DNA of 64,000 bases from a virus (IMGVR_UViG_3300044846_005772), one strand, 5' to 3'. Numbered from the stretch's first letter, positions 16,494 to 47,881 are shown. The notes: generated by a model from the sequence alone, not told the origin. Translations and numbers: made by a program.

Positions 16494-16814
16494 ATGACGA
16501 GCGAAACAGTGACCGTAGAGTTGCCAAAGAGACTTGCATGGTTCGATTCAAATGGAGAACCGGGCTGGGTATCAAACATTCACAGATTGACTGAGGAGGA
16601 AGCCTCACAGATGGCAGATCTTTATGATTTTACTGAGGATGAAAGTTGTGAAACCTCATGGATCAACCGAGTTAATCGTGAATTACCTAAGGAGAACATA
16701 AGTAAAGTTATCCATGATTCGTTGATTGAGATGAGAAACGATCCTTCACTTTCACCAGCAATGGCGTACACCATTTCATTTCAGAAAAACTTCCCAAATG
16801 CAGATGGAATCTAA
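16494..16814 (+). CDS. hypothetical protein (106 aa)
   Basis: ORF. Confidence 0.45.
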   Translation: MTSETVTVELPKRLAWFDSNGEPGWVSNIHRLTEEEASQMADLYDFTEDESCETSWINRVNRELPKENISKVIHDSLIEMRNDPSLSPAMAYTISFQKNFPNADGI

Positions 16815-17100
16815 TACACCACGAGTAGTTCACTTTAAAAAAGAACCATGTGATGTGTATATAGGACGTCCTTCTAAATGGGGAAATCCTTTCACTCATA
16901 TCGATGACCGTAGGACTGCCGCAAAATACATTGTGAGCAATAGGGATGAAGCTGTTGCAAAGTACGAGGAATATATCTTAAAAGGAGAAGGTCAGCATTT
17001 ATTAGCTGACCTTCACGAGTTAAGAGGAAAAACATTAGGTTGTTGGTGTCATCCTAAGTCATGTCATGGAGACGTTTTGCTAAAACTAGCAAACTCTTAG
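16798..17100 (+). CDS. DUF4326-like protein
   Basis: YIGRPSKWGNPF ... GKTLGCWCHPKSCHGDVL pattern recalled for DUF4326; from memory only. Confidence 0.45.
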   Translation: MQMESNTPRVVHFKKEPCDVYIGRPSKWGNPFTHIDDRRTAAKYIVSNRDEAVAKYEEYILKGEGQHLLADLHELRGKTLGCWCHPKSCHGDVLLKLANS

Positions 17101-23724: not shown

Positions 23725-24294
23725 ATGAAAATAATCTTTTTGGATATTGACGGTGTGCTGAATTGCCAGGATGCGTATGCTGCCGGTGAATGCGAATATG
23801 TTGAATGGACTAATGGGGATCAACATCAAGCTTTTTGCTCATGGAGCAAAGAATGGTTGAATAAGCTGATTGCTGAAAGTGAGGCAAAGATCGTCATCAG
23901 CTCTACTTGGAGGCATTCAGGCATTGAATATATGAAAAAGGTTTGGGAACTTGAAGGTATGCCTGGCGAAATCATTGGACTTACCCCAAACTTTAGAGGA
24001 GACATCAATGGCTATACTGTACCTCGAGGATGTGAAATTGAGAAGTGGTTAAGAGACAATGGCTTTCATCATATTAATTGGAGCCGTGACGCGCAGAACG
24101 AAAACATTCAAAAATCTGGCATTGAAAACTATTTGATTATTGATGATGATAGTGATATGCTCTACAGCCAAAGACATAACTTTTTGCATGTGCTACCTTC
24201 ACCGAGAAACACTCGTGGATTTGACCGCGATCATTATGTAAAAGGCATGCAAATACTTAGTTGGACAGTAACAGAACAAACATACGGAATATGA
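23725..24294 (+). CDS. HAD-superfamily phosphatase / nucleotidase-like
   Basis: N-terminal IIFLDIDGVLN motif I. Confidence 0.55.
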   Translation: MKIIFLDIDGVLNCQDAYAAGECEYVEWTNGDQHQAFCSWSKEWLNKLIAESEAKIVISSTWRHSGIEYMKKVWELEGMPGEIIGLTPNFRGDINGYTVPRGCEIEKWLRDNGFHHINWSRDAQNENIQKSGIENYLIIDDDSDMLYSQRHNFLHVLPSPRNTRGFDRDHYVKGMQILSWTVTEQTYGI

Positions 24295-24591: not shown

Positions 24592-25173
24592 ATGGTAAAT
24601 AACTTTGAACTAATAAAGAGCATACTTCAATTTAGAAGTGAGGATGATTTTTATCATTTACAGATAATCAAGCGAAAGAAGGAAAATCCAGAAATAGGAT
24701 CAAATTCATATGTGATAAAGACTTATTATATCACATCCGAATCTCATCTAGAAAAGCTATTTCCAGAGATAGTAAATCTTTGCGAGTTTAATAATGCACG
24801 AGCATGCATAAACTTGAATAGAAGATCCTTTGAGAGAATAGCGTTTCACGTTCTAAAGAAAGTAACTGATCAGATCATGAACAAGGATTTTAAGTCAGCT
24901 CGAAAGGCGTACGAGTCGGTGTGTGGAGAATACTCAGCTGATCCTGAAAAGAAATGGATTATCGATATTGATAATTTCGATGAGATCTTTGACCGAGAAG
25001 TTCAGATGTACATTGCAAGCTTGCAACCAATTGGAGCGAAAGTTATTGCAAATATTCCTACTAAGCACGGTCATCATCTTATCTGTTCTCCATTTAGGCT
25101 TGATGAATTTAAGCAAAAATACTCTGAGCTCGACATACATAAAGATAATCCAACAATCTTGTATATTCCTTAA
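24592..25173 (+). CDS. hypothetical protein (193 aa)
   Basis: ORF. Confidence 0.45.
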   Translation: MVNNFELIKSILQFRSEDDFYHLQIIKRKKENPEIGSNSYVIKTYYITSESHLEKLFPEIVNLCEFNNARACINLNRRSFERIAFHVLKKVTDQIMNKDFKSARKAYESVCGEYSADPEKKWIIDIDNFDEIFDREVQMYIASLQPIGAKVIANIPTKHGHHLICSPFRLDEFKQKYSELDIHKDNPTILYIP

Positions 25174-27227: not shown

Positions 27228-28597
27228 AAAAAATTAAACTAATTATCTTTGATTTAGACGGTGTTCTAATTGATGCAAAGAATATACATTTTGATTCATT
27301 AAATCTAGCTCTAGGCGAATACGCTATTGACTGGGATGAACACTTATCAATTTATGATGGATTAAAAACTAGTCAAAAATTAGAAATGTTACATGATCGT
27401 AAAGGACTGCCTAGGGAAAATTTCAAGCGTATTTGGGAAGAAAAACAAAAATACACGTTAGCTTCTCTAAGTAAAGTAGGAGAATCTGATCGCCTTCGAG
27501 AGTGTATGTTCTCTCTTGCTAGTGATGGTTATAAAATAGCAGTCTGTTCAAACAGTATACGAAAAACCGTTTTAACTGTTTTATCTAAATTAGGTATAAT
27601 TGAATACATGGATTTGATTATATCTAATGAAGATGTTAAAAATTCAAAACCTCATCCTGAAATGTACTGGAAAGCTATTTCAATGATGAGTTGTTTACCT
27701 GAGGAGACACTAATAGTTGAGGATTCGCCGTATGGACTATTAGCAGCATCTAGGGCTAAAGCTAATATTCTAAGAGTCACGCATCCGAATGAAGTAACGT
27801 ATGATAGTTTACGTAAAAAAATAAATGAAATAAGCACAGGAAGTATTATGATAACACCTAAATGGAAAGATGAAAAACTAAATATACTCGTTCCGATGGC
27901 TGGTGCAGGAAGTAGATTCGAGCAAGCTGGTTATACTTTTCCAAAACCTCTTATCGACGTAAATGGGAAGCCTATGATACAAGTAGTAATTGAGAATTTG
28001 AATATTGACGCAAATTACATATTCGTTGTTCAAAAAGAGCACAGAGAAAAATATAATTTAGATACTATGCTATCTTTAATTGCGCCGGGCTGCAAAATTG
28101 TCGAAACTGACCGACTAACACAAGGAGCCGCATGTACAGCGCTTTTAGCTAAAGAACACATTGATAATGACTCACCATTATTCTTTGCAAATTCAGATCA
28201 ATTTGTTGAATGGGACTCAAATGAGTTTATGTATAAAATGAATGAAACTAATGCAGACGGAGGAATAGTTACTTTTAAAGCGGCTCATCCAAAATGGTCC
28301 TTTGCTAAAATAGATTTAGAGACAGGCTGCGTAACTGAAGTTGCTGAAAAAAATCCAATATCGGACGACGCAACAGTCGGCTATTACTACTGGAAAATAG
28401 GTTCAGATTTTGTTAAGTATGCGGAACGTATGATAGAAAAAAACATTAGAGTAAATAATGAGTTCTATGTATGTCCAGTCTTCAATCAAGCTATTGAAGA
28501 TAATAAAAAAATACGCACGTTTACTGCAGACAAAATGTGGGGCTTAGGAACGCCTGAAGATTTAAAATATTATATTGAAAATTATGGGAAAAACTAA
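27224..28597 (+). CDS. bifunctional HAD phosphatase/phosphomutase-like + sugar-phosphate nucleotidyltransferase
   Basis: N-terminal IIFDLDGVLIDA (HAD motif I). Second half LVPMAGAGSRFEQAGYTFPKPLIDVNGKPMIQ is an NTP-transferase glycine-rich loop. Confidence 0.7.
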   Translation: MKKIKLIIFDLDGVLIDAKNIHFDSLNLALGEYAIDWDEHLSIYDGLKTSQKLEMLHDRKGLPRENFKRIWEEKQKYTLASLSKVGESDRLRECMFSLASDGYKIAVCSNSIRKTVLTVLSKLGIIEYMDLIISNEDVKNSKPHPEMYWKAISMMSCLPEETLIVEDSPYGLLAASRAKANILRVTHPNEVTYDSLRKKINEISTGSIMITPKWKDEKLNILVPMAGAGSRFEQAGYTFPKPLIDVNGKPMIQVVIENLNIDANYIFVVQKEHREKYNLDTMLSLIAPGCKIVETDRLTQGAACTALLAKEHIDNDSPLFFANSDQFVEWDSNEFMYKMNETNADGGIVTFKAAHPKWSFAKIDLETGCVTEVAEKNPISDDATVGYYYWKIGSDFVKYAERMIEKNIRVNNEFYVCPVFNQAIEDNKKIRTFTADKMWGLGTPEDLKYYIENYGKN

Positions 28598-29165
28598 AAT
28601 TGAAGTTGGCGCGAATAGCGGCGTCGACACTGAATTACTAGCGAGCGATGGTTCTATCGTATATGCGTTTGAACCTACTCATGAACTATTGAACACTCTG
28701 TGGGATAGGTTTAAAGAAAATAATAATGTCAAAATATTGCCGTTTGCAGTTGATACTGAGAACGGATTTGCTACATTTAAAGTCGCAGGCCATTGGGACT
28801 GGGGCTGCAGTAGTTTACATGATTTTTCTGGCCAATGGGAAAGAGAAGATTTTCACGTAACTCATACTTATCAAGTGCCTAAAATAACATTATTCGATTT
28901 TTGTAATCTTTATAATATTACAAAAATAGATTATCTCTGGATTGACGCTCAAGGTAATGACTTTAATTGTTTGTTATCGTTGAAGGATAAAATCAATTTA
29001 GTCGTTGAGGGTAGATGCGAAGTCGCCTTAAATTTAGAATTGTATAAAGACACAAATAACCATATCAATTACGTAAAGCCATGGTTAGAAACACATGGAT
29101 TCACAGTTGAAATACATCCAGATGGAACATCGGCTGAAGCTAATTTGATATTTTATAGAAAATGA
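28575..29165 (+). CDS. FkbM-family methyltransferase
   Basis: GANSGVDTELLA SAM motif; size 196 aa. Confidence 0.55.
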   Translation: MKIMGKTKIEVGANSGVDTELLASDGSIVYAFEPTHELLNTLWDRFKENNNVKILPFAVDTENGFATFKVAGHWDWGCSSLHDFSGQWEREDFHVTHTYQVPKITLFDFCNLYNITKIDYLWIDAQGNDFNCLLSLKDKINLVVEGRCEVALNLELYKDTNNHINYVKPWLETHGFTVEIHPDGTSAEANLIFYRK

Positions 29166-29614
29166 AACTAATATCTCATAGAGGTAACATTCGTGGACCC
29201 ATTCAAGAATTAGAGAATAGTCCAGAGTATATTGAAACTGCAATAACTCTAGGCTTTGATGTGGAAGTAGATGTGAGAATAAGAAATAATAAATTATTTC
29301 TAGGTCATGATGAACCACAATTTGAATTAAGTATTAACTTTTTAGAAAAATATTATTCAAAATTATGGTTACATTGTAAGGAAATTGAAGTCATCGAAAA
29401 GTTTAACGAATTAGATCCGAATGGAACACATCTACATTACTTTTGGCATGAAAATGATGTAATGGCTCTAACAAGTAAAGGCAATATATGGGCATATCCC
29501 GGAAAGCAGCCTATTTTAAATAGCATAGCAGTTTTGCCCGAAATCAACGGTGATGACGTCTCTAAATGTTATGGAGTATGCAGTGATTTTATAACAAATT
29601 ATAGAAGTATATGA
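29162..29614 (+). CDS. glycerophosphodiester phosphodiesterase (GDPD)-like protein
   Basis: ISHRGN...ENS...A...GFDVEVDVR...LGHDE matches the GDPD N-terminal signature. Confidence 0.55.
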   Translation: MKLISHRGNIRGPIQELENSPEYIETAITLGFDVEVDVRIRNNKLFLGHDEPQFELSINFLEKYYSKLWLHCKEIEVIEKFNELDPNGTHLHYFWHENDVMALTSKGNIWAYPGKQPILNSIAVLPEINGDDVSKCYGVCSDFITNYRSI

Positions 29615-30267
29615 AAATAGAATTAAAGAAAGATCAGCGACTGTGGTTCACAAGCGATACTCACTATAATCATGCAAACATATGTAGTGCTACTACACGG
29701 TGGGTAGGCGCAGATAACTTAACTCGTAAATTTAGCTCCTTGGAGAGAATGAATGATGAACTAGTTTTTTGGATTAATCACCGTGTAGAGCAGGACGATA
29801 TTCTAATTCATCTAGGTGACTGGTCATTTGGCGGATTTGAAAGCATCAAAGCATTTAGGGATCGTATTGTATGCCAGAACGTACACCTAGTACTAGGTAA
29901 CCACGATCACCATATCCAACGAAACAAGGACGATGTACAAAGCTTATTCAGCTCAGTGCACGAATACTTGTACTTGGAAGTTAAACGTCCTGGTACTACT
30001 AAGAAGGATGCGATAGATCGATTCGCTTTTGTTTGTATGCACTATCCGATTGCTAGTTGGAACAATATGAACAACGGAGCCATTCACTTACATGGACACG
30101 TTCACTTACCTAATCACCTTAGAGTAGCTGATGGTAAAGCTATGGATGTTGGCGTTGATGGAAATAACTTAGAGCCAATTAGCATGGAAGAGGTTCTTCG
30201 AATAATGAACAAGCGACCAATCGCTAAATTGGCTCTTCCAAAAGATCATCATGAAAAAAGAATATAG
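29611..30267 (+). CDS. metallophosphoesterase
   Basis: DTHYNH, GDWSFG and GNHDHH motifs. Confidence 0.65.
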   Translation: MKIELKKDQRLWFTSDTHYNHANICSATTRWVGADNLTRKFSSLERMNDELVFWINHRVEQDDILIHLGDWSFGGFESIKAFRDRIVCQNVHLVLGNHDHHIQRNKDDVQSLFSSVHEYLYLEVKRPGTTKKDAIDRFAFVCMHYPIASWNNMNNGAIHLHGHVHLPNHLRVADGKAMDVGVDGNNLEPISMEEVLRIMNKRPIAKLALPKDHHEKRI

Positions 30268-30272
30268 TCTGT

Positions 30273-31391
30273 ATGTTTTTCGAAAATAGTAAAGTAAAAA
30301 TTAATTTAGAAAAGTTTACTGAATTTGATTCAGGAAAACTTGCATTACTTGCAGTAGAACATTCTCCAAATGACGTAGCAATAGTATTCTTTCCACATGA
30401 CATCAATATTGAATACAAAATATCTATACAAATAAATTCTATATGTTTTAAAGAGTATACAATAAAACAGCAAGACGTATTTTATGTAATTCTTAAAAGG
30501 ACGATTGGTTTTTTCGAAATAGAAATATCATCAGTTTTTCAAAAAGACAAGTATATTAATACTTTGAGTAATTTAGAAGAAAATGGGAGCATTAACATAA
30601 TCAAGCCAAGAATAACATTGTATTCAATTTGCTGGAATGAAGAAAAGATATTGCCTTTTTTCTTACAGCATTATTCTAAATTCGTAGATAAAATAATAAT
30701 ATTTGATAACGAGTCGACTGATGATTCTATTAAGATCATTCAAGAGTTTAATGAATGTAGCGTTGAGATTATTTCATATTCTACTAATAATAAGATAGAC
30801 GATCGTAAATACCTCGAGATAAAAAATAATTGCTGGAAATCAGATCCATCTGAGTATGTAATTGTTTGCGATTCTGATGAATTTTTAGCTAGTGAGTATG
30901 ATATTCTTGAATATCTTTCTAATAATACAGACATAGACGTTTTTACACCAACCGGTTTTGAAATGATTTCTGAGGTTTTTCCAAATCAATCAGAATCAAT
31001 AATTCAACAAGTATTGAATGGAAGACCCCACGCTGGGTTAAATAAGAGAATTTTGTTTAGACCAAATATGATATTTGAGATAGGATATTCTCCAGGATGC
31101 CACATTAATTATCCAGTAGGAATCAATCTTAACGTTAAAGAGAGCAATTTGGATCTTATTATGCTACATTATAAATGTCTATCCCTCGATTATTTTATAA
31201 GTAGAACCGCTATTTTGGGAACTAGGTTGAGCGATTTTAATCTAAACGTTAATGCAGGTTCTCATTATCTTCTTGAAGATTCAAATCAAATTAATATTTT
31301 CAATCAAATTCTTTTGAATTCAACGCAAGTGGTTTCTGAAAAAATCATAAAACGCTTTGAAAAAAGATCAAAGCGAACATGGAAAATATAA
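30273..31391 (+). CDS. glycosyltransferase family 2-like protein
   Basis: YSICWNEEKILPFFLQHY...IIIFDNESTDDS resembles a GT-A (GT2) N-terminal region. Confidence 0.5.
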   Translation: MFFENSKVKINLEKFTEFDSGKLALLAVEHSPNDVAIVFFPHDINIEYKISIQINSICFKEYTIKQQDVFYVILKRTIGFFEIEISSVFQKDKYINTLSNLEENGSINIIKPRITLYSICWNEEKILPFFLQHYSKFVDKIIIFDNESTDDSIKIIQEFNECSVEIISYSTNNKIDDRKYLEIKNNCWKSDPSEYVIVCDSDEFLASEYDILEYLSNNTDIDVFTPTGFEMISEVFPNQSESIIQQVLNGRPHAGLNKRILFRPNMIFEIGYSPGCHINYPVGINLNVKESNLDLIMLHYKCLSLDYFISRTAILGTRLSDFNLNVNAGSHYLLEDSNQINIFNQILLNSTQVVSEKIIKRFEKRSKRTWKI

Positions 31392-31617: not shown

Positions 31618-32394
31618 ATGAAAAAAGCTATTTACTTTAGCCTTATTGCAGTGGTATTCGCTGCATGTAACTCAGTTCAACCGAACTTTGAGGGAGTCTT
31701 AATGCAAAATTACGGACGAAACGGAGTACAAGATTTCACAATCGTTACTGGTAATCAGGGAATGTTGGGTCCGGGAACAGAACTGTATCAGGTACCTATG
31801 TACGAGCAAACAGCCGATCCACAGCAAGTTAGTATTACTGCAAAGGACGCAGGTGTATTCACAGTAGATCCTTCATTCACTTACGAAGCCATTAGAGGTA
31901 AGGGGATCGATGTTGTGTTCAACTATAAGCATACTGGCTTTGACGATAACATGGACAACTTGGAGAACATGATCCTCAATCCAATAGTAGTAAACGCATT
32001 CAGAGAGGAAGCTCGCAATTTTACAACGGACTCCCTAATGAATAACTTAAATGCATTTGAATCTAGAGTACAGGAGAGATTAAAGCAGGAATTTGAGATA
32101 AAGTTCTTTAAGCTTAACTCATTAACTTCTGGTCTAACTCCACCTGCTTCAATGGCGCAAGCAATTGAGCAACGTAATAATCAAAAGCAAATGGCAGAGC
32201 AAGTAAAGAACGAGTTGGAAGTTGCTCGCATGCAAAAGGAGAAAGCGCAAATCGAACAAGAAACTAATCGTATCAAATCTCAAGGGTTGACGAAGGAAAT
32301 CTTAATGGAGCGCTATATAGATGCGTTACGCTGGAGCAATAATAGAATCATCATAACTGACGGAAAAACACCAGTTCTCCTAAATCAAAACTAA
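31618..32394 (+). CDS. lipoprotein with SPFH/band-7-like C-terminal region
   Basis: Lipobox AACNS after a signal peptide; Ala/Glu/Gln-rich C-terminal helix typical of SPFH. Confidence 0.45.
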   Translation: MKKAIYFSLIAVVFAACNSVQPNFEGVLMQNYGRNGVQDFTIVTGNQGMLGPGTELYQVPMYEQTADPQQVSITAKDAGVFTVDPSFTYEAIRGKGIDVVFNYKHTGFDDNMDNLENMILNPIVVNAFREEARNFTTDSLMNNLNAFESRVQERLKQEFEIKFFKLNSLTSGLTPPASMAQAIEQRNNQKQMAEQVKNELEVARMQKEKAQIEQETNRIKSQGLTKEILMERYIDALRWSNNRIIITDGKTPVLLNQN

Positions 32395-32582
32395 AAATAT
32401 AAACTAGAGGAGCAGCAGTGCTCCTCTTTATTCTTTAAATATATGACAGCATTTTCACTTTGCATGGCTATTGGTTGGGTAGCATTAGTCGCTTCATGGA
32501 TAATTCCATGGACGATGAAAAACAAAAAAATTAGCAGAATCGTTGCAATGATATTGTCTGCATTTGCAGTAGGGATATTCAT
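32391..32582 (-). CDS. small membrane protein (63 aa)
   Basis: Two hydrophobic segments. Confidence 0.35.
   Translation of the reverse strand: MNIPTANADNIIATILLIFLFFIVHGIIHEATNATQPIAMQSENAVIYLKNKEEHCCSSSLYF
32406..32433 (+). terminator. rho-independent terminator
   Basis: agaggagca-gcag-tgctcctct followed by T-rich run. Confidence 0.6.
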
Positions 32583-32619
32583 AGCTAATGGAATTTATAT
32601 TCTTTTTAAATAAGAACTG

Positions 32620-33105
32620 ATGAGAAGAACAATAACACCAGAATCAGAAGAACAAGAATCGGAAGATTATTTTAGATCGTACGCGACTGTTTTCCTAGCT
32701 GGCTCAATTGAAATGGGAGAAGCTGAGGACTGGCAAACGAAAGTCATCAATTCATTTGATGAGAAAGATGAAGTCACTTTCTTTAATCCTAGAAGAGATG
32801 CTTGGGATTCTTCGTGGGAACAAGCACAATCTAATCCACAGTTCAATCATCAAGTAAACTGGGAGTTGAATCATTTAGACTCATGTGATATTGTCTTTAT
32901 GAACTTTATTCCAGGAACAAAGAGCCCTATCTCTTTACTTGAATTGGGAGCATATGGTCATCATAATAAAATGATAGTGTGCTGCCCTGAAGGTTTCTGG
33001 AGAAAAGGAAACGTTGATATTTTCTGCACTAGACAAAACATCCAAGTGTTTACTGATCTTACTGCAGCAATTGGTGCTCTACGAACTAAACTTGAAACCA
33101 TTTAA
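32620..33105 (+). CDS. nucleoside 2-deoxyribosyltransferase-fold protein
   Basis: VFLAGSIEMG ... SLLELGAYGH pattern of the PF05014-like fold. Confidence 0.45.
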   Translation: MRRTITPESEEQESEDYFRSYATVFLAGSIEMGEAEDWQTKVINSFDEKDEVTFFNPRRDAWDSSWEQAQSNPQFNHQVNWELNHLDSCDIVFMNFIPGTKSPISLLELGAYGHHNKMIVCCPEGFWRKGNVDIFCTRQNIQVFTDLTAAIGALRTKLETI

Positions 33106-33109
33106 CTAG

Positions 33110-34630
33110 ATGAATCCTCTACTATTAACAGACGGCTACAAGACTGGCCATCACCAACAGTATCCTAAAGGCACGACTTTAGTGTATTCTAACTTCACAC
33201 CACGTTCAAACAAGTACGCTCCTAAGGGATGTGATGCAGTTGTAGTATTCGGACCTCAAATGGTTATGATGCAATTGGACGAAATGTTTCAAAGAGACTT
33301 TTTTGATCGACCTAAGGATCTGGTTTGCGGAGAAATGAAAAGAGAACTTTCAGCATATCTAGGTACAGATTATGATGTTAGCCACTTTGAGGCGTTGCAT
33401 GATTTAGGCTATCTTCCAATTGCAGTTAAAGCATTGCCGGAAGGTACTAAGGCACCAATTAAGGTTCCAGTGTTGACTATTTACAACACACATCCTGACT
33501 TCTATTGGATCACAAATTATCTTGAAACAATTCTTTCCAACTTGCTGTGGAAACCAATGACGTCAGCTACTATCGCCCATCAGTACAGAAAGGTATTGAC
33601 ATGTTGGATGGAAAAGACAGATAAAGAAAGAGCATGGTTTGTGGATTGGCAAGGGCATGACTTTTCAATGCGAGGCATGGACTCAGTCGAGGCAGTCGTT
33701 AGTTCAGGCTTAGGTCACCTAACTTCCTTTCTAGGTTCCGATTCTCTACCAGCTATTCATGGTGCTAGAAAGTTCTATGGAGCTAGCGAGTTTGTTGCAG
33801 GTTCAGTTCCAGCTACAGAGCATTCGGTGATGTGCGCAGGCGGTAAGGAAGACGAGGTTGAAACGTTCCGCAGATTGTTAGAGACATATCCGAAAGGAAT
33901 CCTTTCAGTAGTATCTGATACATGGGATCTTTGGAAAGTTTGTACCGAACATGTGGTTACTTTGAAAGAAGAAATTATGGCTCGTGATGGTAAGTTAGTT
34001 ATTCGCCCTGACTCAGGTGACCCAGTAGATATTTTATGTGGTTCTATTCGTTTTGATAATAAAGAAGAATACGAAACGGAAAAAGCTGATGGAACATTAA
34101 GTAAAGCAAATCCATCTGAAAAAGGAGTTATCGAATTACTTTGGGATGTATTTGGAGGAACAGTAAACGAACAAGGATACAAAGTTCTTGACTCACATAT
34201 TGGAGCTATTTACGGTGACTCAATCACAATTGACAGAGCAGATGAGATTTGCAGACGTTTAGAAGCAAAAGGATTCGCATCAACAAACGTAGTGTTAGGT
34301 ATCGGTTCATTCACTTACCAATACAATACTCGTGATACATTTGGGTTTGCAATGAAAGCCACTTACGTAGAAGTTAAACACCAAGTAGAATCAGGAATCC
34401 CAGTGTTTGCAATTGAAGGTCGTGAGATTTTTAAAGACCCGATCACTGATGATGGAACAAAGAAATCAGCAACTGGTCTGTTGTGTGTTGAGGAGTTAGA
34501 TGGTGAAATTAAGTTATACGATAAAGTATCTTGGAATACAGAAGACACTGGCGTACTTCAACTTATCTATAAAGACGGCCAGCAATATAACGTTACATCA
34601 TTAGAAGATATCCGAAAAAAATTAAGATAA
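33110..34630 (+). CDS. nadV: nicotinamide phosphoribosyltransferase (NAMPT/NadV) family protein; could equally be a NARP1 Namat
   Basis: 506 aa, NAMPT-like throughout; adjacent to a PRPP-synthetase homolog. Confidence 0.75.
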   Translation: MNPLLLTDGYKTGHHQQYPKGTTLVYSNFTPRSNKYAPKGCDAVVVFGPQMVMMQLDEMFQRDFFDRPKDLVCGEMKRELSAYLGTDYDVSHFEALHDLGYLPIAVKALPEGTKAPIKVPVLTIYNTHPDFYWITNYLETILSNLLWKPMTSATIAHQYRKVLTCWMEKTDKERAWFVDWQGHDFSMRGMDSVEAVVSSGLGHLTSFLGSDSLPAIHGARKFYGASEFVAGSVPATEHSVMCAGGKEDEVETFRRLLETYPKGILSVVSDTWDLWKVCTEHVVTLKEEIMARDGKLVIRPDSGDPVDILCGSIRFDNKEEYETEKADGTLSKANPSEKGVIELLWDVFGGTVNEQGYKVLDSHIGAIYGDSITIDRADEICRRLEAKGFASTNVVLGIGSFTYQYNTRDTFGFAMKATYVEVKHQVESGIPVFAIEGREIFKDPITDDGTKKSATGLLCVEELDGEIKLYDKVSWNTEDTGVLQLIYKDGQQYNVTSLEDIRKKLR

Positions 34631-34634
34631 TTAC

Positions 34635-35513
34635 ATGAGTCAATTAAATTTAGAATATCCTGAAAAATCAGATATTAAGTATAAGATCAATAGGTTTCCT
34701 GACGGCCAACAAAGCATCACCTTAAACACAACTTGGGGATACTTGGATGTTGAGGTTCAGATAGTAAGTAGACTCAAAACATTTAGGGATCTTGAATTAG
34801 TTATTTGCGCAACGGCTGCTTTAAGAAATATAGGTTACTCCAAAATTTCTCTGTATGTTCCCTACTTCTTGGGCGCTAGGTCAGATCGTCGATTTAATGA
34901 TTGGGAAGCAAACTACTTGAAGGAAGTAATCTGTCCTATTGTTAATTCTCAAAAGTACCATTCGGTTACTGTGATGGACCCTCATTCGGATGTGCTGGAA
35001 GCCTGCCTAGAAAACTATCGATTGATAGATAATATCAACTTAGTCAAGTTTGCTCTTACAGATATTGATAACCGAAATGATGCTCGTGATCGAATCGTCA
35101 TAGTATCGCCAGACGCTGGTGCGCTAAAGAAGATTTACAAGGTAGCTGAGCATTTCAAAATTAGCAACTTGATCACAGCATCTAAGCACAGGGATATTGC
35201 GACTGGTAAGATAACTGAAACTGTTGTGCCGGAGTTGGAAAAGTATTCTGATAACCACGCATTCGTTATCGTTGACGACATCTGTGATGGAGGCAGAACT
35301 TTTATTGAAGCCTCAAAGGTAATCAAGCAAGCACACCCTTCAGCAAAAGTATATGCAATTGTGACACATGGAATATTTAGTAATAGCTTCTTGGAATTGA
35401 GTAGACACTTTACTAAGATGTACTCAACTAATAGTTACTCAGATATTGATGTTGAAAGCCACAGCGACTATACAGTAAGTAAGGACTTCCTAATGCAATT
35501 CAATATATTCTAA
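34635..35513 (+). CDS. prs: ribose-phosphate pyrophosphokinase (PRPP synthetase) family protein; could be an ADPR-PP synthetase (Adps) of NARP1
   Basis: IVSPDAGALKK and PRPP-binding IVDDICDGGRTF motifs. Confidence 0.7.
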   Translation: MSQLNLEYPEKSDIKYKINRFPDGQQSITLNTTWGYLDVEVQIVSRLKTFRDLELVICATAALRNIGYSKISLYVPYFLGARSDRRFNDWEANYLKEVICPIVNSQKYHSVTVMDPHSDVLEACLENYRLIDNINLVKFALTDIDNRNDARDRIVIVSPDAGALKKIYKVAEHFKISNLITASKHRDIATGKITETVVPELEKYSDNHAFVIVDDICDGGRTFIEASKVIKQAHPSAKVYAIVTHGIFSNSFLELSRHFTKMYSTNSYSDIDVESHSDYTVSKDFLMQFNIF

Positions 35514-35514
35514 G

Positions 35515-35700
35515 ATGGCTCTACTTGAATCACAATACAAATTGCACCTGCAGAAAAATCCAGAGCATTCACATTGGACGTATGACGAATGGTTGAAATG
35601 GCACGGAGATCAGTTAGCAGAATCCATTAGGAACTCGGATCCAAAAATATCTGATAATTTTCAGATAGGACCGGATGGAGCATACGAAGAGGATGACTAG
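35515..35700 (+). CDS. hypothetical protein (61 aa)
   Basis: Short ORF directly after prs. Confidence 0.35.
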   Translation: MALLESQYKLHLQKNPEHSHWTYDEWLKWHGDQLAESIRNSDPKISDNFQIGPDGAYEEDD

Positions 35701-35766: not shown

Positions 35767-35791
35767 AAAGGGACCAGTAGGTCCCTTTTTA
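35767..35791. terminator. bidirectional rho-independent terminator
   Basis: gggacc-agta-ggtccc with A-run upstream and T-run downstream. Confidence 0.7.
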
Positions 35792-43735: not shown

Positions 43736-43990
43736 TTATATAGAATATTTTTATTGAATTATTGAAATGATCTGCATTTCAAGCTAACCTTCATCCACGT
43801 GGATGCACATATTCTAACATAGAGCAAGAGCTCAGAAGCAAAGGACGTTGAACTCTTAGGTTCAATTTCACCAGAGAGGTGAACACGAAAACAATCAAAT
43901 AAGCTAGGTATAACTATTTATACGAGAAAAGTGAAGAGACGTCGGTGCAATCTAAAAACGCTGTGTTTTTATCGAGGTCTCTCCACTGAG

Positions 43991-44065
43991 TGGTAGGTCC
44001 ACCAGGAATCGAACCTGGAATAGAAGCTTAGAAGGCTACTGTTATATCCATTTAACTATGGACCC
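43991..44065 (-). tRNA. tRNA-Arg (anticodon TCT)
   Basis: Acceptor GGGTCCA/TGGACCT, T-arm CCAGG-TTCGATT-CCTGG, anticodon loop CTTCTAA, encoded CCA. One mismatch in the anticodon stem. Confidence 0.55.
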
Positions 44066-44073
44066 AAATAAGC

Positions 44074-44123
44074 AAAGGTCAGCTTCTCTATCCGTGTGGT
44101 ATTTCACGAGCTGACCTTTTAGT
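44074..44123. terminator. long-loop hairpin, possible terminator
   Basis: aaaggtcagc ... gctgaccttt inverted repeat. Confidence 0.4.
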
Positions 44124-44133
44124 TTAAATTATT

Positions 44134-44877
44134 TTAGGAAATTTTACCTAAAGTAAATTCTCCATTCTCGTAAACGAGATACTGTTTTTCCTCAAGAGCG
44201 TCTATGAAGTAATAGCGATTGCCTGTTGACTTTCCTTCTATGTCGATCTTACGTACACCGGTGTGTCCGGCTATTTGGATATGCTTCTCCTTTAGGAAGG
44301 TGTCCCGGTTCCCACTCATCAAGCTCGCAGGACGTATCCAGATGGGGGTTTGAGTTTTTGAATCTCCATAAGGATCCCAACCATTAAAGGTAAATTTAGC
44401 AGGCCTGTATTTCCAAAGGTCGTTCACGAAATCGGAGATGCTCTGCTCACCAGTCTCATCATACCCATTTTGAGTTACCAACCACGAATGACCGATTCCT
44501 GCATGCGAACAGATGATGTCGTCCAACTGATAGCACATTTGTAAATGGTGAGAGTTTTCCTCAAGCAACTGTCGTATTACTGGCGCAGCACCGTGCTGAT
44601 AACCCGAATAGGTCTCTCCGCCTGGATAGTAATGGTAATCGTGATTACCTATGAGCATGATAACTTGGGTCTTGCGTTGAGTGTCCGTACCTTCATCAGT
44701 AAATGAAGTCTCCTTGTACTCAATGATCTCCTTGAAATTATGTAGCTGTTCGGTCGTGCCTATGTCAAAGCTGTCAAAGTAGTCGCCGACGAAGACCACA
44801 TGATCCGCATTTTCCTTCTCCACAATCTCCTTCCAAATAGATCTGCCGTGGATATCGCCTATGAATATTGTTTTCAT
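44134..44877 (-). CDS. PPP-family Ser/Thr phosphatase / ApaH-like metallophosphoesterase
   Basis: GDIHGR, GDYFDSFDIG and GNHDYH motifs. Confidence 0.7.
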   Translation of the reverse strand: MKTIFIGDIHGRSIWKEIVEKENADHVVFVGDYFDSFDIGTTEQLHNFKEIIEYKETSFTDEGTDTQRKTQVIMLIGNHDYHYYPGGETYSGYQHGAAPVIRQLLEENSHHLQMCYQLDDIICSHAGIGHSWLVTQNGYDETGEQSISDFVNDLWKYRPAKFTFNGWDPYGDSKTQTPIWIRPASLMSGNRDTFLKEKHIQIAGHTGVRKIDIEGKSTGNRYYFIDALEEKQYLVYENGEFTLGKIS

Positions 44878-45104
44878 CTAGATTGATTATTTTTTATCCT
44901 AGCCCTCAGACCTTCCCAGTAACCCGACTCATGTCGGTACCTATGTACCGGCCCAAGTTCATCCGGAAAAGCGGTGAGCATGCGCGAGGAGTTTTGAGTG
45001 TCCGCTAACATGAAAGTGTTTACCAAGCTTGTGTGGAAGCTACCGGCCGTGCCGATGCTCCAATAGTAGAGTTCCCACTCCCATCTGTTTATTTCCTTAT
45101 CCAT
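44874..45104 (-). CDS. hypothetical protein
   Basis: ORF overlapping the upstream stop. Confidence 0.35.
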   Translation of the reverse strand: MDKEINRWEWELYYWSIGTAGSFHTSLVNTFMLADTQNSSRMLTAFPDELGPVHRYRHESGYWEGLRARIKNNQSR

Positions 45105-45303
45105 CGATTAATGCTGTTAAAAATACTCCAACATAGAACACAAAGAAGGCTGGGATCCAAGTAACTAAAAGTGCCAACATCTGAATGGCGTCATACTTTT
45201 GGAATGCAAAATAGATCGGAGACACAAAGATGCAGATGGCAGCTATCGAAAAGATCGAGATCGTGATCAGGGCCAGAACTCCTCTTAATTTTCTAGTTTT
45301 CAT
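45097..45303 (-). CDS. small membrane protein
   Basis: Two TM-like segments. Confidence 0.35.
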   Translation of the reverse strand: MKTRKLRGVLALITISIFSIAAICIFVSPIYFAFQKYDAIQMLALLVTWIPAFFVFYVGVFLTALIDG

Positions 45304-45344
45304 ATCAGTTTTATTTTTTCTATTATACTAAGATCCTTGGGAAT

Positions 45345-45629
45345 TTACTCCAGGATCTGGACTTTATTTTGGGTCTCAATCCAAACCTTAGCACCACAAC
45401 TTAGCGGTTTATCCGGAGAGTAGATTATCCTGCAGGCTTCCTTGCCATTCTCATCATACACTATTGCCTGGTGACCGTACTCATTTGACTTATATGTTTT
45501 ACAAGTAAGCACGGGTCGATTCTCCTCGTCCTTGGAGTTCGCCTTGATATTATGCTGATTAACGTGGATTATCGTTTTCATCGGGTGCATGATTAAAGTA
45601 TTGCGGCGTCCATTCGCTGTCCGGTTCAA
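45345..45629 (-). CDS. hypothetical protein
   Basis: ORF; overlaps the next ORF in another frame. Confidence 0.3.
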   Translation of the reverse strand: MNRTANGRRNTLIMHPMKTIIHVNQHNIKANSKDEENRPVLTCKTYKSNEYGHQAIVYDENGKEACRIIYSPDKPLSCGAKVWIETQNKVQILE

Positions 45630-45921
45630 GATCGCTGCCGATTGATGTTACGTGAGACCTGACGTCTCGACCGTTTTGGTTCAGGAGACGAATGTTATGC
45701 TTGATGGCGGCAAACGGCCTCCCTCCAACATGCACCAACTCAAATTCCACATTGGGTTCGGCTAGTATCCTGGCATCAAGGTTATCGAAGATCCTGTCGA
45801 GTTCAGCCAGGTCTGCCCTTTCCTGAGGATGTAGGTCCACGCAGAATGTGGATCCACTATCATCGACGTACGAGATCTCCCAACCTCTGCTCGGATGTTT
45901 TTGCATGGTGCCCTGCATCAA
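45559..45921 (-). CDS. hypothetical protein
   Basis: ORF. Confidence 0.35.
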   Translation of the reverse strand: MMQGTMQKHPSRGWEISYVDDSGSTFCVDLHPQERADLAELDRIFDNLDARILAEPNVEFELVHVGGRPFAAIKHNIRLLNQNGRDVRSHVTSIGSDLEPDSEWTPQYFNHAPDENDNPR

Positions 45922-46118
45922 ATATCCGTTTTGTTTCTAAAAATAAATTCCTTATGGTCTTCGTCCTTCATCGATGCTCCCTGCAGCCACTCATAAAATT
46001 CGTCAGCCGCCCGTAATACAGTTTTCGTACCCCCATGTATTCCCATAGTTCTCTTCGTCTCTTCCATGGCCATCTGCAGGGCCACTTGACGATTTGTGTA
46101 AAACTTAATGTTACTCAT
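45918..46118 (-). CDS. hypothetical protein
   Basis: ORF. Confidence 0.35.
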   Translation of the reverse strand: MSNIKFYTNRQVALQMAMEETKRTMGIHGGTKTVLRAADEFYEWLQGASMKDEDHKEFIFRNKTDI

Positions 46119-46404
46119 GTTGCTTTCTTTTTATATTATACTCCAGTATTTGAGAAGGATTTTACTACGGAGTAAATCAAAAAATTGTGCTCAAGATTGG
46201 ACTTGCACCAATACGTTCCTTCGAACTCGTTACCTTAGCGTCTACTATCGGGTACTACATGATTACCTCGCTTCCGCCACTTGAGCATATGTAAAACACA
46301 CTCTCAAGCATTCTACTTCCCGCCCCTACACAAATGCGTAGCACGAAATTGTATCTTACTTAGCCCGTCGCTCGCGGTATGGGTACTTGAGTTTATGTGT
46401 TTCG

Positions 46405-46482
46405 TACCCCCTGAGAGACTCGAACTCTCACCCGAAGACTAGATCCTAAGTCTAGCGCGTCTACCGATTCCGCCAAAGGGGC
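46405..46482 (-). tRNA. tRNA-Leu-like (anticodon TAG), class II D-arm
   Basis: GCGGAATCGGTAGACGC D-arm, anticodon arm CTAGA-CTTAGGA-TCTAG, T-arm GAGAG-TTCGAGT-CTCTC, acceptor GCCCCTT/AGGGGGT. The variable region is only ~9 nt. Confidence 0.45.
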
Positions 46483-46692
46483 ATGATGGAAAACTTGGCT
46501 ACCATACGCGTCGATATGGTCAAGAATTGATTGATGGTTGGTTCCCCATCACCTGATGCCGTGCACAGCAGAGCAGGATCTCCTACATAACAACCCGGGG
46601 CATGATTACTCTCCGTTAAGGTTGCGATCCTCTGAGAGCCGGGTTCTCTTTCAACGGTGCTAATCCGTCCTATGTTAGCTGTTTTCCATTTG

Positions 46693-46829
46693 TAGTCAGG
46701 ACAGGAATCGAACCTGCATAAGTGTTACTGTGCTTCGCACTCCATTTGGTTATTATCAGGCTTTGTGTGAGGTCGCATCTCGTGCTAAACTGTTTTACCC
46801 AAATGACGTTACCATTCCGCCACCTGACT
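46693..46829 (-). tRNA. tRNA-like element 1 (class II ends, 137 nt, aberrant core)
   Basis: 5' AGTCAGGTGGCGGAATGGTAACG and 3' CAGGTTCGATTCCTGTCCTGACTA; no canonical anticodon arm is foldable by eye. Confidence 0.3.
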
Positions 46830-46983
46830 ATTTGTTTACTTTATCATTCCAATTACAATGGCTACAATTTCTAACCATGCAATTATTCCAAAAAATATGT
46901 ATGGTAATCTAAAATCATCCCATGTAGGTTTTTTAAATAACAAAAGAACTTTTAATGCTTCAATCATAACATTGTTGTTTTAG

Positions 46984-47085
46984 TAGTCAGGACAGGATTC
47001 GAACCTGTATGAGATGGTCAAAGCTTTCGCTGCATCTTACGTGGAACTTTGCGGGATCCTGCGTCTACCATTCCGCCACCTGACT
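46984..47085 (-). tRNA. tRNA-like element 2 (102 nt)
   Basis: Same ends (GCGGAATGGTAGACGC D-arm, ACAGG-TTCGAAT-CCTGT T-arm). Candidate anticodon arm GGATC-CCGCAAA-GTTCC has a mismatch and C33. Confidence 0.3.
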
Positions 47086-47161
47086 ATGTTGTTTAGTGGG
47101 ACTCATACCACCATGCTTCATTGCCTTGTATCATGTTTTTTGTTTAAGTTAATTTGTTTAG

Positions 47162-47273
47162 TAGTCAGGACAGGATTCGAACCTGTAAATCTCCAAAATA
47201 AAACTATCTCGAGTTCATTTTATTTCTTAAGGAGTCCATTAGATGGAGCGTCTACCAGTTCCGCCACCTGACT
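47162..47273 (-). tRNA. tRNA-like element 3 (112 nt)
   Basis: Same ends; the core contains a TCCAT-CTA-ATGGA hairpin instead of an anticodon arm. Confidence 0.3.
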
Positions 47274-47279
47274 ATTGTT

Positions 47280-47552
47280 TTACTTACTTACGTAATCCAT
47301 CATCTCACGCATCTTAAGAATCAGCAATTCCATCTCATCCTTATTGAGATACATCCTTGAACTTCCAGTCTTGTCGTCTAACTCCTTGGTTTCCACGATA
47401 ATTCCATTGAACCCCTCGGTTGGATATACATCAACGTTCTGCTCTTCAGTTGCGATTACGACTTTGTGCCAAACTTTATTTTTCATAGCTCTATTTTTAT
47501 TAGTAGTCAGGACAGGATTCGAACCTGTAACCGTAGCAGAGACGGTGCACAT
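47280..47552 (-). CDS. hypothetical protein between tRNA-like elements
   Basis: ORF. Confidence 0.4.
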   Translation of the reverse strand: MCTVSATVTGSNPVLTTNKNRAMKNKVWHKVVIATEEQNVDVYPTEGFNGIIVETKELDDKTGSSRMYLNKDEMELLILKMREMMDYVSK

Positions 47553-47590
47553 CGGGAGGAAACAGCGTCTACCAATTCCGCCACCTGACT
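47504..47590 (-). tRNA. tRNA-like element 4 (87 nt, class II length; anticodon loop CTCCCGA)
   Basis: Segment lengths fit a class II tRNA exactly (GCGGAATTGGTAGACGC; variable arm ACCGT-CTCTGCT-ACGGT; discriminator A). The anticodon stem GTTTC/TGTGC pairs poorly. Confidence 0.4.
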
Positions 47591-47593
47591 ATA

Positions 47594-47881
47594 TTATTCG
47601 CTGCACGGCTGGAACCATGCTTCCCGCTGCACGTATCTCTGACTTAGGGACAGCTGATCCAAGGAGAATGACGCCACCTCGGACTCCACTATAGTAAATT
47701 CAAATCCGTCCTGCACATAGGTCTCAACATGCTTTACCTTTCTGCCCAGCTTACTGGGAAAGTAGGGTCCAAAATTACCCAAAGTCCTGTACACGCCAGA
47801 CCCAATCAAAATCTCCTTGGCCTGTTGCATCTCACCAGCCTGTTCAGCACGGCCGTTAACGTATAACTTAGCAGCTCCCAT
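47594..47881 (-). CDS. hypothetical protein (first GC-rich gene)
   Basis: ORF; composition shifts here. Confidence 0.4.
   Translation of the reverse strand: MGAAKLYVNGRAEQAGEMQQAKEILIGSGVYRTLGNFGPYFPSKLGRKVKHVETYVQDGFEFTIVESEVASFSLDQLSLSQRYVQREAWFQPCSE

Follow-up and report, generated by a model that had tools for sequence, protein, structure and literature searches.

NARP1, described in Bacillus phage SPbetaL1 and Escherichia coli phage Bas63 (bioRxiv 10.1101/2024.02.11.579819; PMC12774641), is one of the major means by which phages counter immunity that depletes NAD+, and is carried by roughly 4.3% of phage genomes (Osterman et al., bioRxiv 10.1101/2024.02.11.579819). It pairs two enzymes encoded side by side, ADP-ribose pyrophosphate synthetase (Adps), a homologue of Prs, and Namat (nicotinamide ADP-ribose transferase), a homologue of Nampt, which rebuild NAD+ from ADP-ribose (ADPR) and nicotinamide. 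Every accessory found so far in NARP1 operons has brought to light a novel enzymatic activity as well as a host strategy not seen before. In NARP1-AP (bioRxiv 10.64898/2026.01.28.702374), the Macro-domain ADPR-1''P phosphatase Adpp makes NARP1 substrate from a non-canonical NAD+ breakdown product, and in the NARP1 locus of mycobacteriophage DyoEdafos the RyR-domain glycosidase RyDEP (bioRxiv 10.64898/2026.05.28.727677) turns an ADPR-based immune signal into linear ADPR for NARP1. NARP2, of Vibrio phage KVP40, likewise counters NAD+ depletion with a Nampt-family enzyme, together with a NadM-type Nmnat. Here we analyse a cassette on the plus strand (positions 32620–35513) of a 64-kb stretch of the viral contig IMGVR_UViG_3300044846_005772, hereafter the window, in which the two NARP1 enzyme families again adjoin and are preceded by a gene for a protein of the nucleoside deoxyribosyltransferase (NDT) fold. 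We find that the core pair is very probably NARP1 (Namat and Adps), as judged from its sequence, and that the NDT-fold gene is likely to be functionally linked to it.

The cassette comprises three open reading frames (ORFs; 32620–33105, 161 amino acids; 33110–34630, 506 amino acids; 34635–35513, 292 amino acids) separated by gaps of 4 nt. An initial annotation of the window had drawn exactly these ORFs, and their matches in Pfam and PHROGs are far beyond chance. Compared with SPbetaL1 and Bas63, the gene order is reversed (Namat, then Adps) and the NDT-fold gene lies 4 nt 5′ of Namat. The core pair adds one more member to a system already described and is known biology; what is new here is the NDT-fold third gene beside it. 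Full-text literature searches returned no paper that ties NARP1 or Namat to a deoxyribosyltransferase-fold protein, and none of relevance for PF15891, the Pfam family of the third gene, or for NDT in combination with anti-defence and NAD. Taken as a whole, the cassette is, with good confidence, an extended NARP1 module for NAD+ reconstitution that includes an NDT-fold accessory enzyme. By analogy, the three-gene arrangement would be best described as an extended NARP1 that shares the logic of NARP1-AP and of NARP1 with RyDEP but uses an unrelated fold.

The Namat and Adps homologues

The 506-amino-acid protein matches the Pfam families NAPRTase (E=1.2e-36) and NAMPT_N (E=1.3e-08) and the PHROGs family phrog_448, ‘nicotinamide phosphoribosyl transferase’ (E=7e-191). 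It is 56% identical to SPbetaL1 Namat and scores 515 bits to the crystal structures of that enzyme (9w5x/9w5w), against 196–215 bits to human and Xanthomonas (Xcc) Nampt. The same ranking holds for the C-terminal segment alone (Namat, 167 bits; Xcc Nampt, 49 bits; human Nampt, 40 bits).

The SPbetaL1 Namat structure (PMC12774641) provides the features by which such enzymes are recognized. A Nampt-like core is conserved, and a selectivity-clamp helix (SCH) carries the signature GS-X-Phi1-X-Phi2-X-Phi3-TRD, the aromatics at positions 3 and 7 of which stack on the adenine of ADPR pyrophosphate (ADPR-PP). A variable loop, SCL, contributes one further adenine-stacking residue, either Arg or a Lys/Tyr followed by the stacking residue, and the adenine selectivity clamp is required for the ADPR-PP reaction only. 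All 13 residues that contact nicotinamide or nicotinamide mononucleotide (NMN) in SPbetaL1 Namat (D13, Y15, F189, S190, R192, D215, A242, R306, D308, G360, G390, S391 and R399 in the SPbetaL1 list) are identical in the window protein, and the catalytic His is kept (His238, aligned with SPbetaL1 His245). The SCH, GSFTYQYNTRD (residues 399–409), is the same as that of SPbetaL1, including clamp residues F401, Y405, T407 and D409, and fits the published Namat consensus; Xcc Nampt, a negative control, reads GMGGALLQKVDRD at this position. The SCL differs: K35-Y36 aligns with R40-V41 of SPbetaL1, giving the Lys-type pattern found in Bas63-like Namats rather than the Arg type. We infer that the protein is a Namat that would join ADPR-PP and nicotinamide to form NAD+, its substrate preference being assigned by homology.

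Two observations concern Namat relatives. PDB entries 9ke8/9keo, titled ‘nicotinamide phosphoribosyltransferase’, score 427 bits to the window protein and have an intermediate SCH motif, GAQTYQRNTRD, in which Gln and Arg replace both clamp aromatics. On a related viral contig (locus L016:8205-11299 of our set), Namat appears as four tblastn pieces spread over approximately 3.1 kb, which suggests insertions (an intron, an intein or a homing endonuclease).

The 292-amino-acid protein has the Prs fold and matches Pribosyltran (E=9e-11) and Pribosyl_synth (E=6e-07) in Pfam and phrog_619, ‘ribose-phosphate pyrophosphokinase’, in PHROGs (E=8e-59). Against the curated Prs model TIGR01251 (cutoff, 113 bits) it scores 102.9 bits, close to the 106 bits of the biochemically validated SPbetaL1 Adps and far from the 422.7 bits of E. 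coli Prs; like the validated enzyme, it falls below every curated Prs cutoff. When 36 dereplicated sequences are aligned, the Lys of the catalytic loop proves to be kept: K184 falls opposite K162 of SPbetaL1 Adps, the residue mutated in Osterman et al. (bioRxiv 10.1101/2024.02.11.579819). The FPDGQ, RSDRR and DPH motifs align with the matching Prs/Adps positions, and two derived motifs are shared with SPbetaL1 Adps and bacterial Adps-like proteins. First, the window protein (PHSDV), SPbetaL1 Adps and bacterial Adps-like proteins carry ‘(D/E)PHS(D/E)V’ where Prs has ‘DLHAEQIQGFF’. Second, the first Thr is missing from the 5-phosphate loop (window protein, DDICDGGRT; SPbetaL1 Adps, DDLSSFGGT; Prs, DDMIDTGGT).

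The initial annotation had left a choice between classical NadV with a supply of phosphoribosyl pyrophosphate (PRPP) and NARP1, and had named clustering of the Prs homologue with housekeeping Prs as grounds for doubting the latter. In a neighbour-joining tree, SPbetaL1 Adps is instead sister to the window clade, and the two are split from five Prs or Prs-like sequences in 191 of 200 bootstraps. The linkage of the two genes points the same way: 97% of the Adps clade is linked to Namat, a link that bacterial prs hardly ever shows (Osterman et al., bioRxiv 10.1101/2024.02.11.579819), and 12 of 12 viral loci with relatives of the window Adps also encode Namat. The window gene has Namat directly beside it, where a Namat gene within 10 genes is looked for, and counts as Adps under the working definition that Osterman et al. 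used. The protein is inferred, by homology, to be an Adps that would convert ADPR and ATP to ADPR-PP.

Several points weigh against this assignment. Identity between the window Adps and SPbetaL1 Adps is only about 30%, and in pairwise comparison the window protein scores about as high to E. coli Prs (57 bits) as to SPbetaL1 Adps (59.7 bits). The tree was built by neighbour joining with a thin outgroup, consisting of gammaproteobacterial-type Prs, one partial archaeal Prs and two Prs-like sequences; the outgroup is shallow because a metagenome scan for Prs gave only sequences 68–100% identical to E. coli Prs. Given the thin outgroup and simple method, the tree is supporting, short of conclusive. 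Two measures were set aside as discriminators between Adps and Prs. Pairwise similarity does not discriminate, and phrog_619 scores E. coli Prs at 193 bits, the window protein at 200 bits and SPbetaL1 Adps at 248 bits; since it does not tell Adps from true Prs, it was not used as evidence.

The choice between the two pathways can be weighed on these data. In classical PRPP-dependent salvage, the Prs homologue would supply PRPP, the Nampt homologue would form NMN, and host or other phage enzymes would finish NAD+, as with NadV/Prs or in a NARP2-like manner. The database names attached to phrog_448, phrog_619 and NF006629 agree with this, phrog_619 does not part Adps from E. coli Prs, and Namat enzymes have been published to keep some PRPP-to-NMN activity in vitro. 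Against it, the clamp needed only for the ADPR-PP reaction is complete in the window Namat, and the Prs homologue both misses all curated Prs cutoffs, as validated Adps does, and groups with Adps. Moreover, a Pfam sweep of the 73 ORFs in the window found no member of the Nmnat (CTP_transf_like), Nudix, Macro, NADAR or RyR families, although the phage genome exceeds the window (the contig is 82.7 kb) and an Nmnat could lie elsewhere on it. In Osterman et al. (bioRxiv 10.1101/2024.02.11.579819), the two pathways were never found in one phage, and the Namats that accompany Adps fell into a clade of their own. We therefore regard PRPP-dependent salvage as very unlikely and read the pair as NARP1, the alternative borne out by the clamp signature, the core residues, the Prs-model score and the grouping of Adps. 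On this reading, the default names ‘nicotinate phosphoribosyltransferase’ and ‘ribose-phosphate pyrophosphokinase’ are corrected for the two core genes.

The window was also searched by tblastn with NadM-like, Macro-like, NADAR, cREC and Thg1 probes, which detected only a HAD_SAK-type gene at 23725–24294. Because no Nmnat, Macro or RyR gene was found there, the module in this window is not a NARP2, NARP1-AP or RyDEP variant: NARP2 needs an Nmnat, and its Nampt is without the clamp aromatics.

The NDT-fold gene and its linkage to Namat

The 161-amino-acid protein belongs to PF15891, Nuc_deoxyri_tr2 (Pfam, E=2.4e-35), a very large family without a name, with at least 8,000 clusters at E ≤ 1e-5. 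It falls in the ‘DrHyd’ branch of the TIR/DrHyd/SLOG class and has an NDT-type Rossmannoid fold. A 2022 survey of viral NAD+/ADPR systems described the viral DrHyd domains as ARC-type only, and the literature on YtoQ reports no function. Searched against PDB sequences, the family profile reached only 4MCJ (BDI_0649 of Parabacteroides distasonis), an uncharacterised protein.

Within the family, Glu108 is invariant in the motif SLLELG, placed by topology on the helix after strand 3, and is the predicted catalytic residue. Many polar and basic residues, densely set, are invariant along with it across 30 sequences of 58–67% identity. Three of the invariant basic residues, R58, R59 and R128, would suit a phosphorylated substrate. 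Set against NDT, DNPH1 and MilB enzymes, the invariant Arg/Lys cluster and the linkage to NARP1 are specific to this family.

The initial annotation had suggested that this gene might be a third component of the module, for example by processing N-glycosides; the neighbourhood of its relatives and a domain fusion strongly support the first part of that suggestion, and the chemistry stays a prediction. An alignment-driven scan of IMG/VR gave 456 NDT relatives, and the linkage counts below refer to the best 80 loci of these, with a Namat or Adps gene counted when within 10 kb on the same strand. Of the 80 viral loci, 69 have Namat near the NDT gene and 55 have Adps. Flanks of at least 5 kb on either side are available for 51 loci, of which 47 contain at least one NARP1 gene and 42 contain both. 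After dereplication at 75% NDT identity, Namat is nearby in 22 of 27 informative viral clusters, to be compared with the roughly 4.3% of phage genomes that carry NARP1. Unbiased clustering of the same-strand ORFs around the NDT gene likewise ranks Namat (70 loci) and Adps (49 loci) at the top.

The linkage holds through rearrangement. We observed at least six gene orders among the NDT–NARP1 loci, including Adps-Namat-NDT, Adps-NDT-Namat, Namat-NDT-ClpP-Adps and Namat-x-Adps-x-NDT, in addition to the NDT-Namat-Adps order of the window. The median distance from NDT to Namat is 352 nt for phages, where Adps is 3.7 kb away, and 33 nt for bacteria; overall, the gap between NDT and Adps is 0.9–3.8 kb, showing that the NDT-fold gene tracks Namat rather than Adps. 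All the NDT-linked Nampt homologues, viral and bacterial, bear a Namat-type SCH motif. The trio also occurs on bacterial chromosomes (23 of 80 bacterial loci, mostly in Bacteroidota), where the NDT stop codon typically lies about 10–30 nt before the Namat start; culturable carriers include Chitinophaga rupis DSM 21039 (L114) and Flavobacterium reichenbachii DSM 21791 (L156). As a side observation, one viral locus (L110, IMGVR_UViG_3300013126_002137) combines the NDT-fold gene with a true-Prs-type gene (DLHADQIQGFF, DDMVDTAGT) and has no Namat within 10 kb.

A domain fusion gives an independent hint. In gp225 of Tunturiibacter phage Tunturi_5 (L273:5953-9741), a 1,262-amino-acid protein encoded beside the portal gene, an N-terminal PF15891 domain is fused to an ART-PolyVal ADP-ribosyltransferase. 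The protein is deposited as ‘MutT/NUDIX hydrolase’ and has no NUDIX domain by Pfam; a Klosneuvirus protein annotated as a Nudix hydrolase also holds a domain structurally similar to the NDT fold. Other genes recur in the viral NDT loci (L032–L111), namely Macro-like (35 loci, with a Pfam match below threshold), HAD_SAK_2 (26), CCA/PolyA polymerase (19), Thg1 (18), cREC_REC (17) and NADAR (16). NDT–NARP1 loci are thus islands rich in families that process ADPR and RNA ends; of these island families, the window holds only the HAD_SAK-type gene noted above.

These data bear on whether the NDT-fold gene belongs to NARP1 or is an unrelated nucleotide-pool enzyme retained in inherited synteny, such as a (deoxy)nucleoside monophosphate N-glycosidase resembling DNPH1/Rcl or MilB, or a nucleoside transglycosylase. 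Several findings weigh against membership. The gene is common in NARP1-free bacteria: in about 55 of the 80 bacterial loci it stands alone, and no neighbour is conserved there, antisense ORFs being the top ‘families’ around it. Eight lineages of cultured phages, jumbo phages among them, have the gene away from NARP1 (RsoM2USA, vB_EliS-L02, BUDD, Marchewka, Slicko01, DLP_6, CcrColossus and Lak-C1). Many of the sampled viral loci come from related phages, so the synteny could be partly inherited rather than selected. The closest characterised structural relatives work on ordinary nucleotides and nucleosides; the family profile does not reach the characterised NDT/Rcl (PF05014) enzymes among PDB sequences. 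Finally, in Caulobacter phage CcrColossus (L276:10001-19835), a distance of 7 kb separates the NDT gene (gp188) from a NARP2-type pair, which is encoded on the other strand. This pair consists of a Nampt-type gene (gp203), in which the SCH reads GGGLMTADLDRD and the clamp aromatics are absent, and a NadM-like Nmnat-Nudix gene (gp204). If this proximity is meaningful, nicotinamide would be the common denominator of the partners, and a nicotinamide-releasing role would stay possible beside an ADPR-releasing one. In a relative of CcrColossus, Brevundimonas phage Marchewka (L031), a Nampt-family gene lies 8 kb from the NDT gene.

Inherited synteny fits poorly with a linkage that survives dereplication and persists through at least six rearrangements and through transfer between phage and bacterial chromosomes. 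Nor does it account readily for a gene that follows Namat rather than the locus, for the recurrence of ADPR-processing families (Macro-like, NADAR and cREC) beside it, or for the independent fusion of PF15891 to an NAD+-using ADP-ribosyltransferase. A NARP1 pair accompanied by an unrelated nucleotide-pool enzyme is accordingly unlikely in our assessment, and we favour a functional link between the NDT-fold gene and NARP1.

Candidate roles of the NDT-fold protein

The functional link would place the NDT-fold protein in the following scheme. From family membership, a host defence of the SIR2, TIR or SEFIR type would split NAD+ into ADPR and nicotinamide, and Adps would use ATP to convert the ADPR to ADPR-PP. 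As its family and the identity of its active-site residues with those of the crystallised enzyme suggest, Namat would then join ADPR-PP and nicotinamide to form NAD+, and the regenerated NAD+ would allow the phage to replicate despite NAD+-depleting immunity. For the third protein, gene linkage, fold and the domain fusion suggest that it may act, by means of Glu108, on an N-glycosidic bond of a nucleotide derived from NAD+, either cleaving or exchanging it, supplying Namat and Adps with a substrate that the pair could not otherwise use. One option is ADPR released from an N-linked ADPR derivative, for example His-ADPR or an N-linked cyclic ADPR; another is free nicotinamide from a nicotinamide nucleotide or riboside. 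In this broad form, the likely role of the NDT-fold protein would be that of an N-glycosidase that feeds ADPR or nicotinamide to NARP1.

A more specific proposal, which we advance tentatively and hold to be possible rather than probable, is that the NDT-fold protein represents a third, hitherto undescribed class of NARP1 extension. It would act as an N-glycosidase or transglycosidase and return ADPR or nicotinamide from some N-linked molecule derived from NAD+. Candidate substrates would be His-ADPR, N-linked cyclic ADPR, another base–ADPR conjugate or a nicotinamide nucleotide. The comparison with described extensions shows where such an enzyme would differ. NARP1-AP likewise has a third operon enzyme, but the third gene of the window is of another fold, and that fold would predict action on N-glycosidic bonds and not on phosphate esters. 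RyDEP cuts an O-glycosidic ribose–ribose bond, and its RyR R12 domain is unrelated to the NDT/DrHyd Rossmannoid. If the proposal is true, the hosts of these phages (probably Bacteroidota) would employ a product or signal made from NAD+ with which core NARP1 cannot deal. As a conserved, enzyme-like third accessory, closely coupled to Namat in hundreds of uncultured phages and on Bacteroidota chromosomes, the gene offers a testable lead to a further layer of this arms race, and it could give a first function to its family.

A different role for the protein would be that of a non-catalytic sponge or sensor of an ADPR-derived immune signal, comparable to Tad1/Tad2 or to the SLOG sensor of ThsA. 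Ligand sensors exist in the TIR/DrHyd/SLOG class, the protein is both small and abundant, its gene has an anti-defence setting, and among the RyR-family relatives of RyDEP some are reported to cleave and others to sequester. This role is hard to reconcile with a Glu at the predicted catalytic position of the class, invariant along with the polar and basic set across the 30 aligned sequences, and many bacteria keep a stand-alone gene of the family, where a sponge of the phage type makes little sense. We consider it very unlikely, and retain an enzyme that supplies NARP1 as the preferred role.

Flanking genes and genome context

The cassette is carried by a phage with a T4-like portal that belongs to a freshwater-type community: a Pfam sweep found the T4-like portal together with PhoH and a family-B DNA polymerase, and an identical NDT protein is present on freshwater metagenome contigs. 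On the left, the cassette is bounded by a GC-rich, terminator-like hairpin readable on both strands (32406–32427), which ends the upstream SPFH gene and has, by consensus scan only, a 9-bp stem with five GC pairs followed by a T-rich tail. On the right, it is bounded by the terminator-like hairpin of a convergent minus-strand gene (35767–35788, minus strand). These hairpins enclose a compact unit consisting of a 56-amino-acid ORF, NDT, Namat, Adps and a 61-amino-acid ORF.

The membership of the two small ORFs in the module is doubtful. The hydrophobic 56-amino-acid ORF (32443–32613, plus strand), directly 5′ of the NDT-fold gene, has no Pfam or PHROGs family match and zero relatives across 160 related loci. 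The 61-amino-acid ORF (35515–35700, plus strand), which begins 1 nt past Adps, also has no Pfam or PHROGs match and one weak relative in those loci. Sigma-70 promoter-like sites were not enriched (21 observed versus 26.9 in shuffles), and as they are no commoner than in shuffled sequence, we claim no promoter.

Further upstream, a gene for a calcineurin-like metallophosphoesterase of 218 amino acids (29611–30267, plus strand; Pfam Metallophos, phrog_547) lies 2.3 kb 5′ of the cassette. Its kin stand beside NARP1 in related phages (L008:8746-9399, L010:9687-10340 and L015:11196-11813) and occur in 12 of the 51 fully flanked NDT loci, and by analogy with Adpp the enzyme could offer another way to dephosphorylate phosphorylated ADPR products.

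The initial annotation had also raised a possible relation of the module to a DUF4326 protein of 100 amino acids (16798–17100, plus strand), of a family associated with ADPR processing. The domain is real (PF14216, E=2.3e-27), and the association agrees with a published prediction that the family is a phosphatase removing ribose-linked terminal phosphates of ADPR derivatives (Iyer et al. 2022, PMC9503650). A relation to the module is not supported, because the gene is about 15.5 kb from the cassette and does not recur in related NARP1 loci (no relatives in 160 related NDT loci).

The remaining upstream genes encode two FkbM methyltransferase hits (24592–25173 and the 28575–29165 region), a GT2 glycosyltransferase (30273–31391) and an SPFH/Band-7 lipoprotein (31618–32394); FkbM, GT2 and SPFH neighbours did not recur with NARP1, bar weak SPFH matches in a few loci. 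Downstream, a tRNA cluster spans 43990–47600, with three tRNAs called by ARAGORN and five by Rfam, including two unusually long Rfam matches (46693–46829 and 46984–47085). A ‘freshwater-1’ small RNA (RF02979) matches the minus strand at 46526–46587 with 72.1 bits, against a gathering score of 72. Across 42000–64000 of the window, the GC content rises from approximately 35% to 43–53%, and the gene content shifts to Pirin, sigma-70, a resolvase, a subtilase, an M28 peptidase and STAND-like NTPases; beside the tRNA genes there could thus be a separate module of the genome, an insertion or a junction with host sequence.

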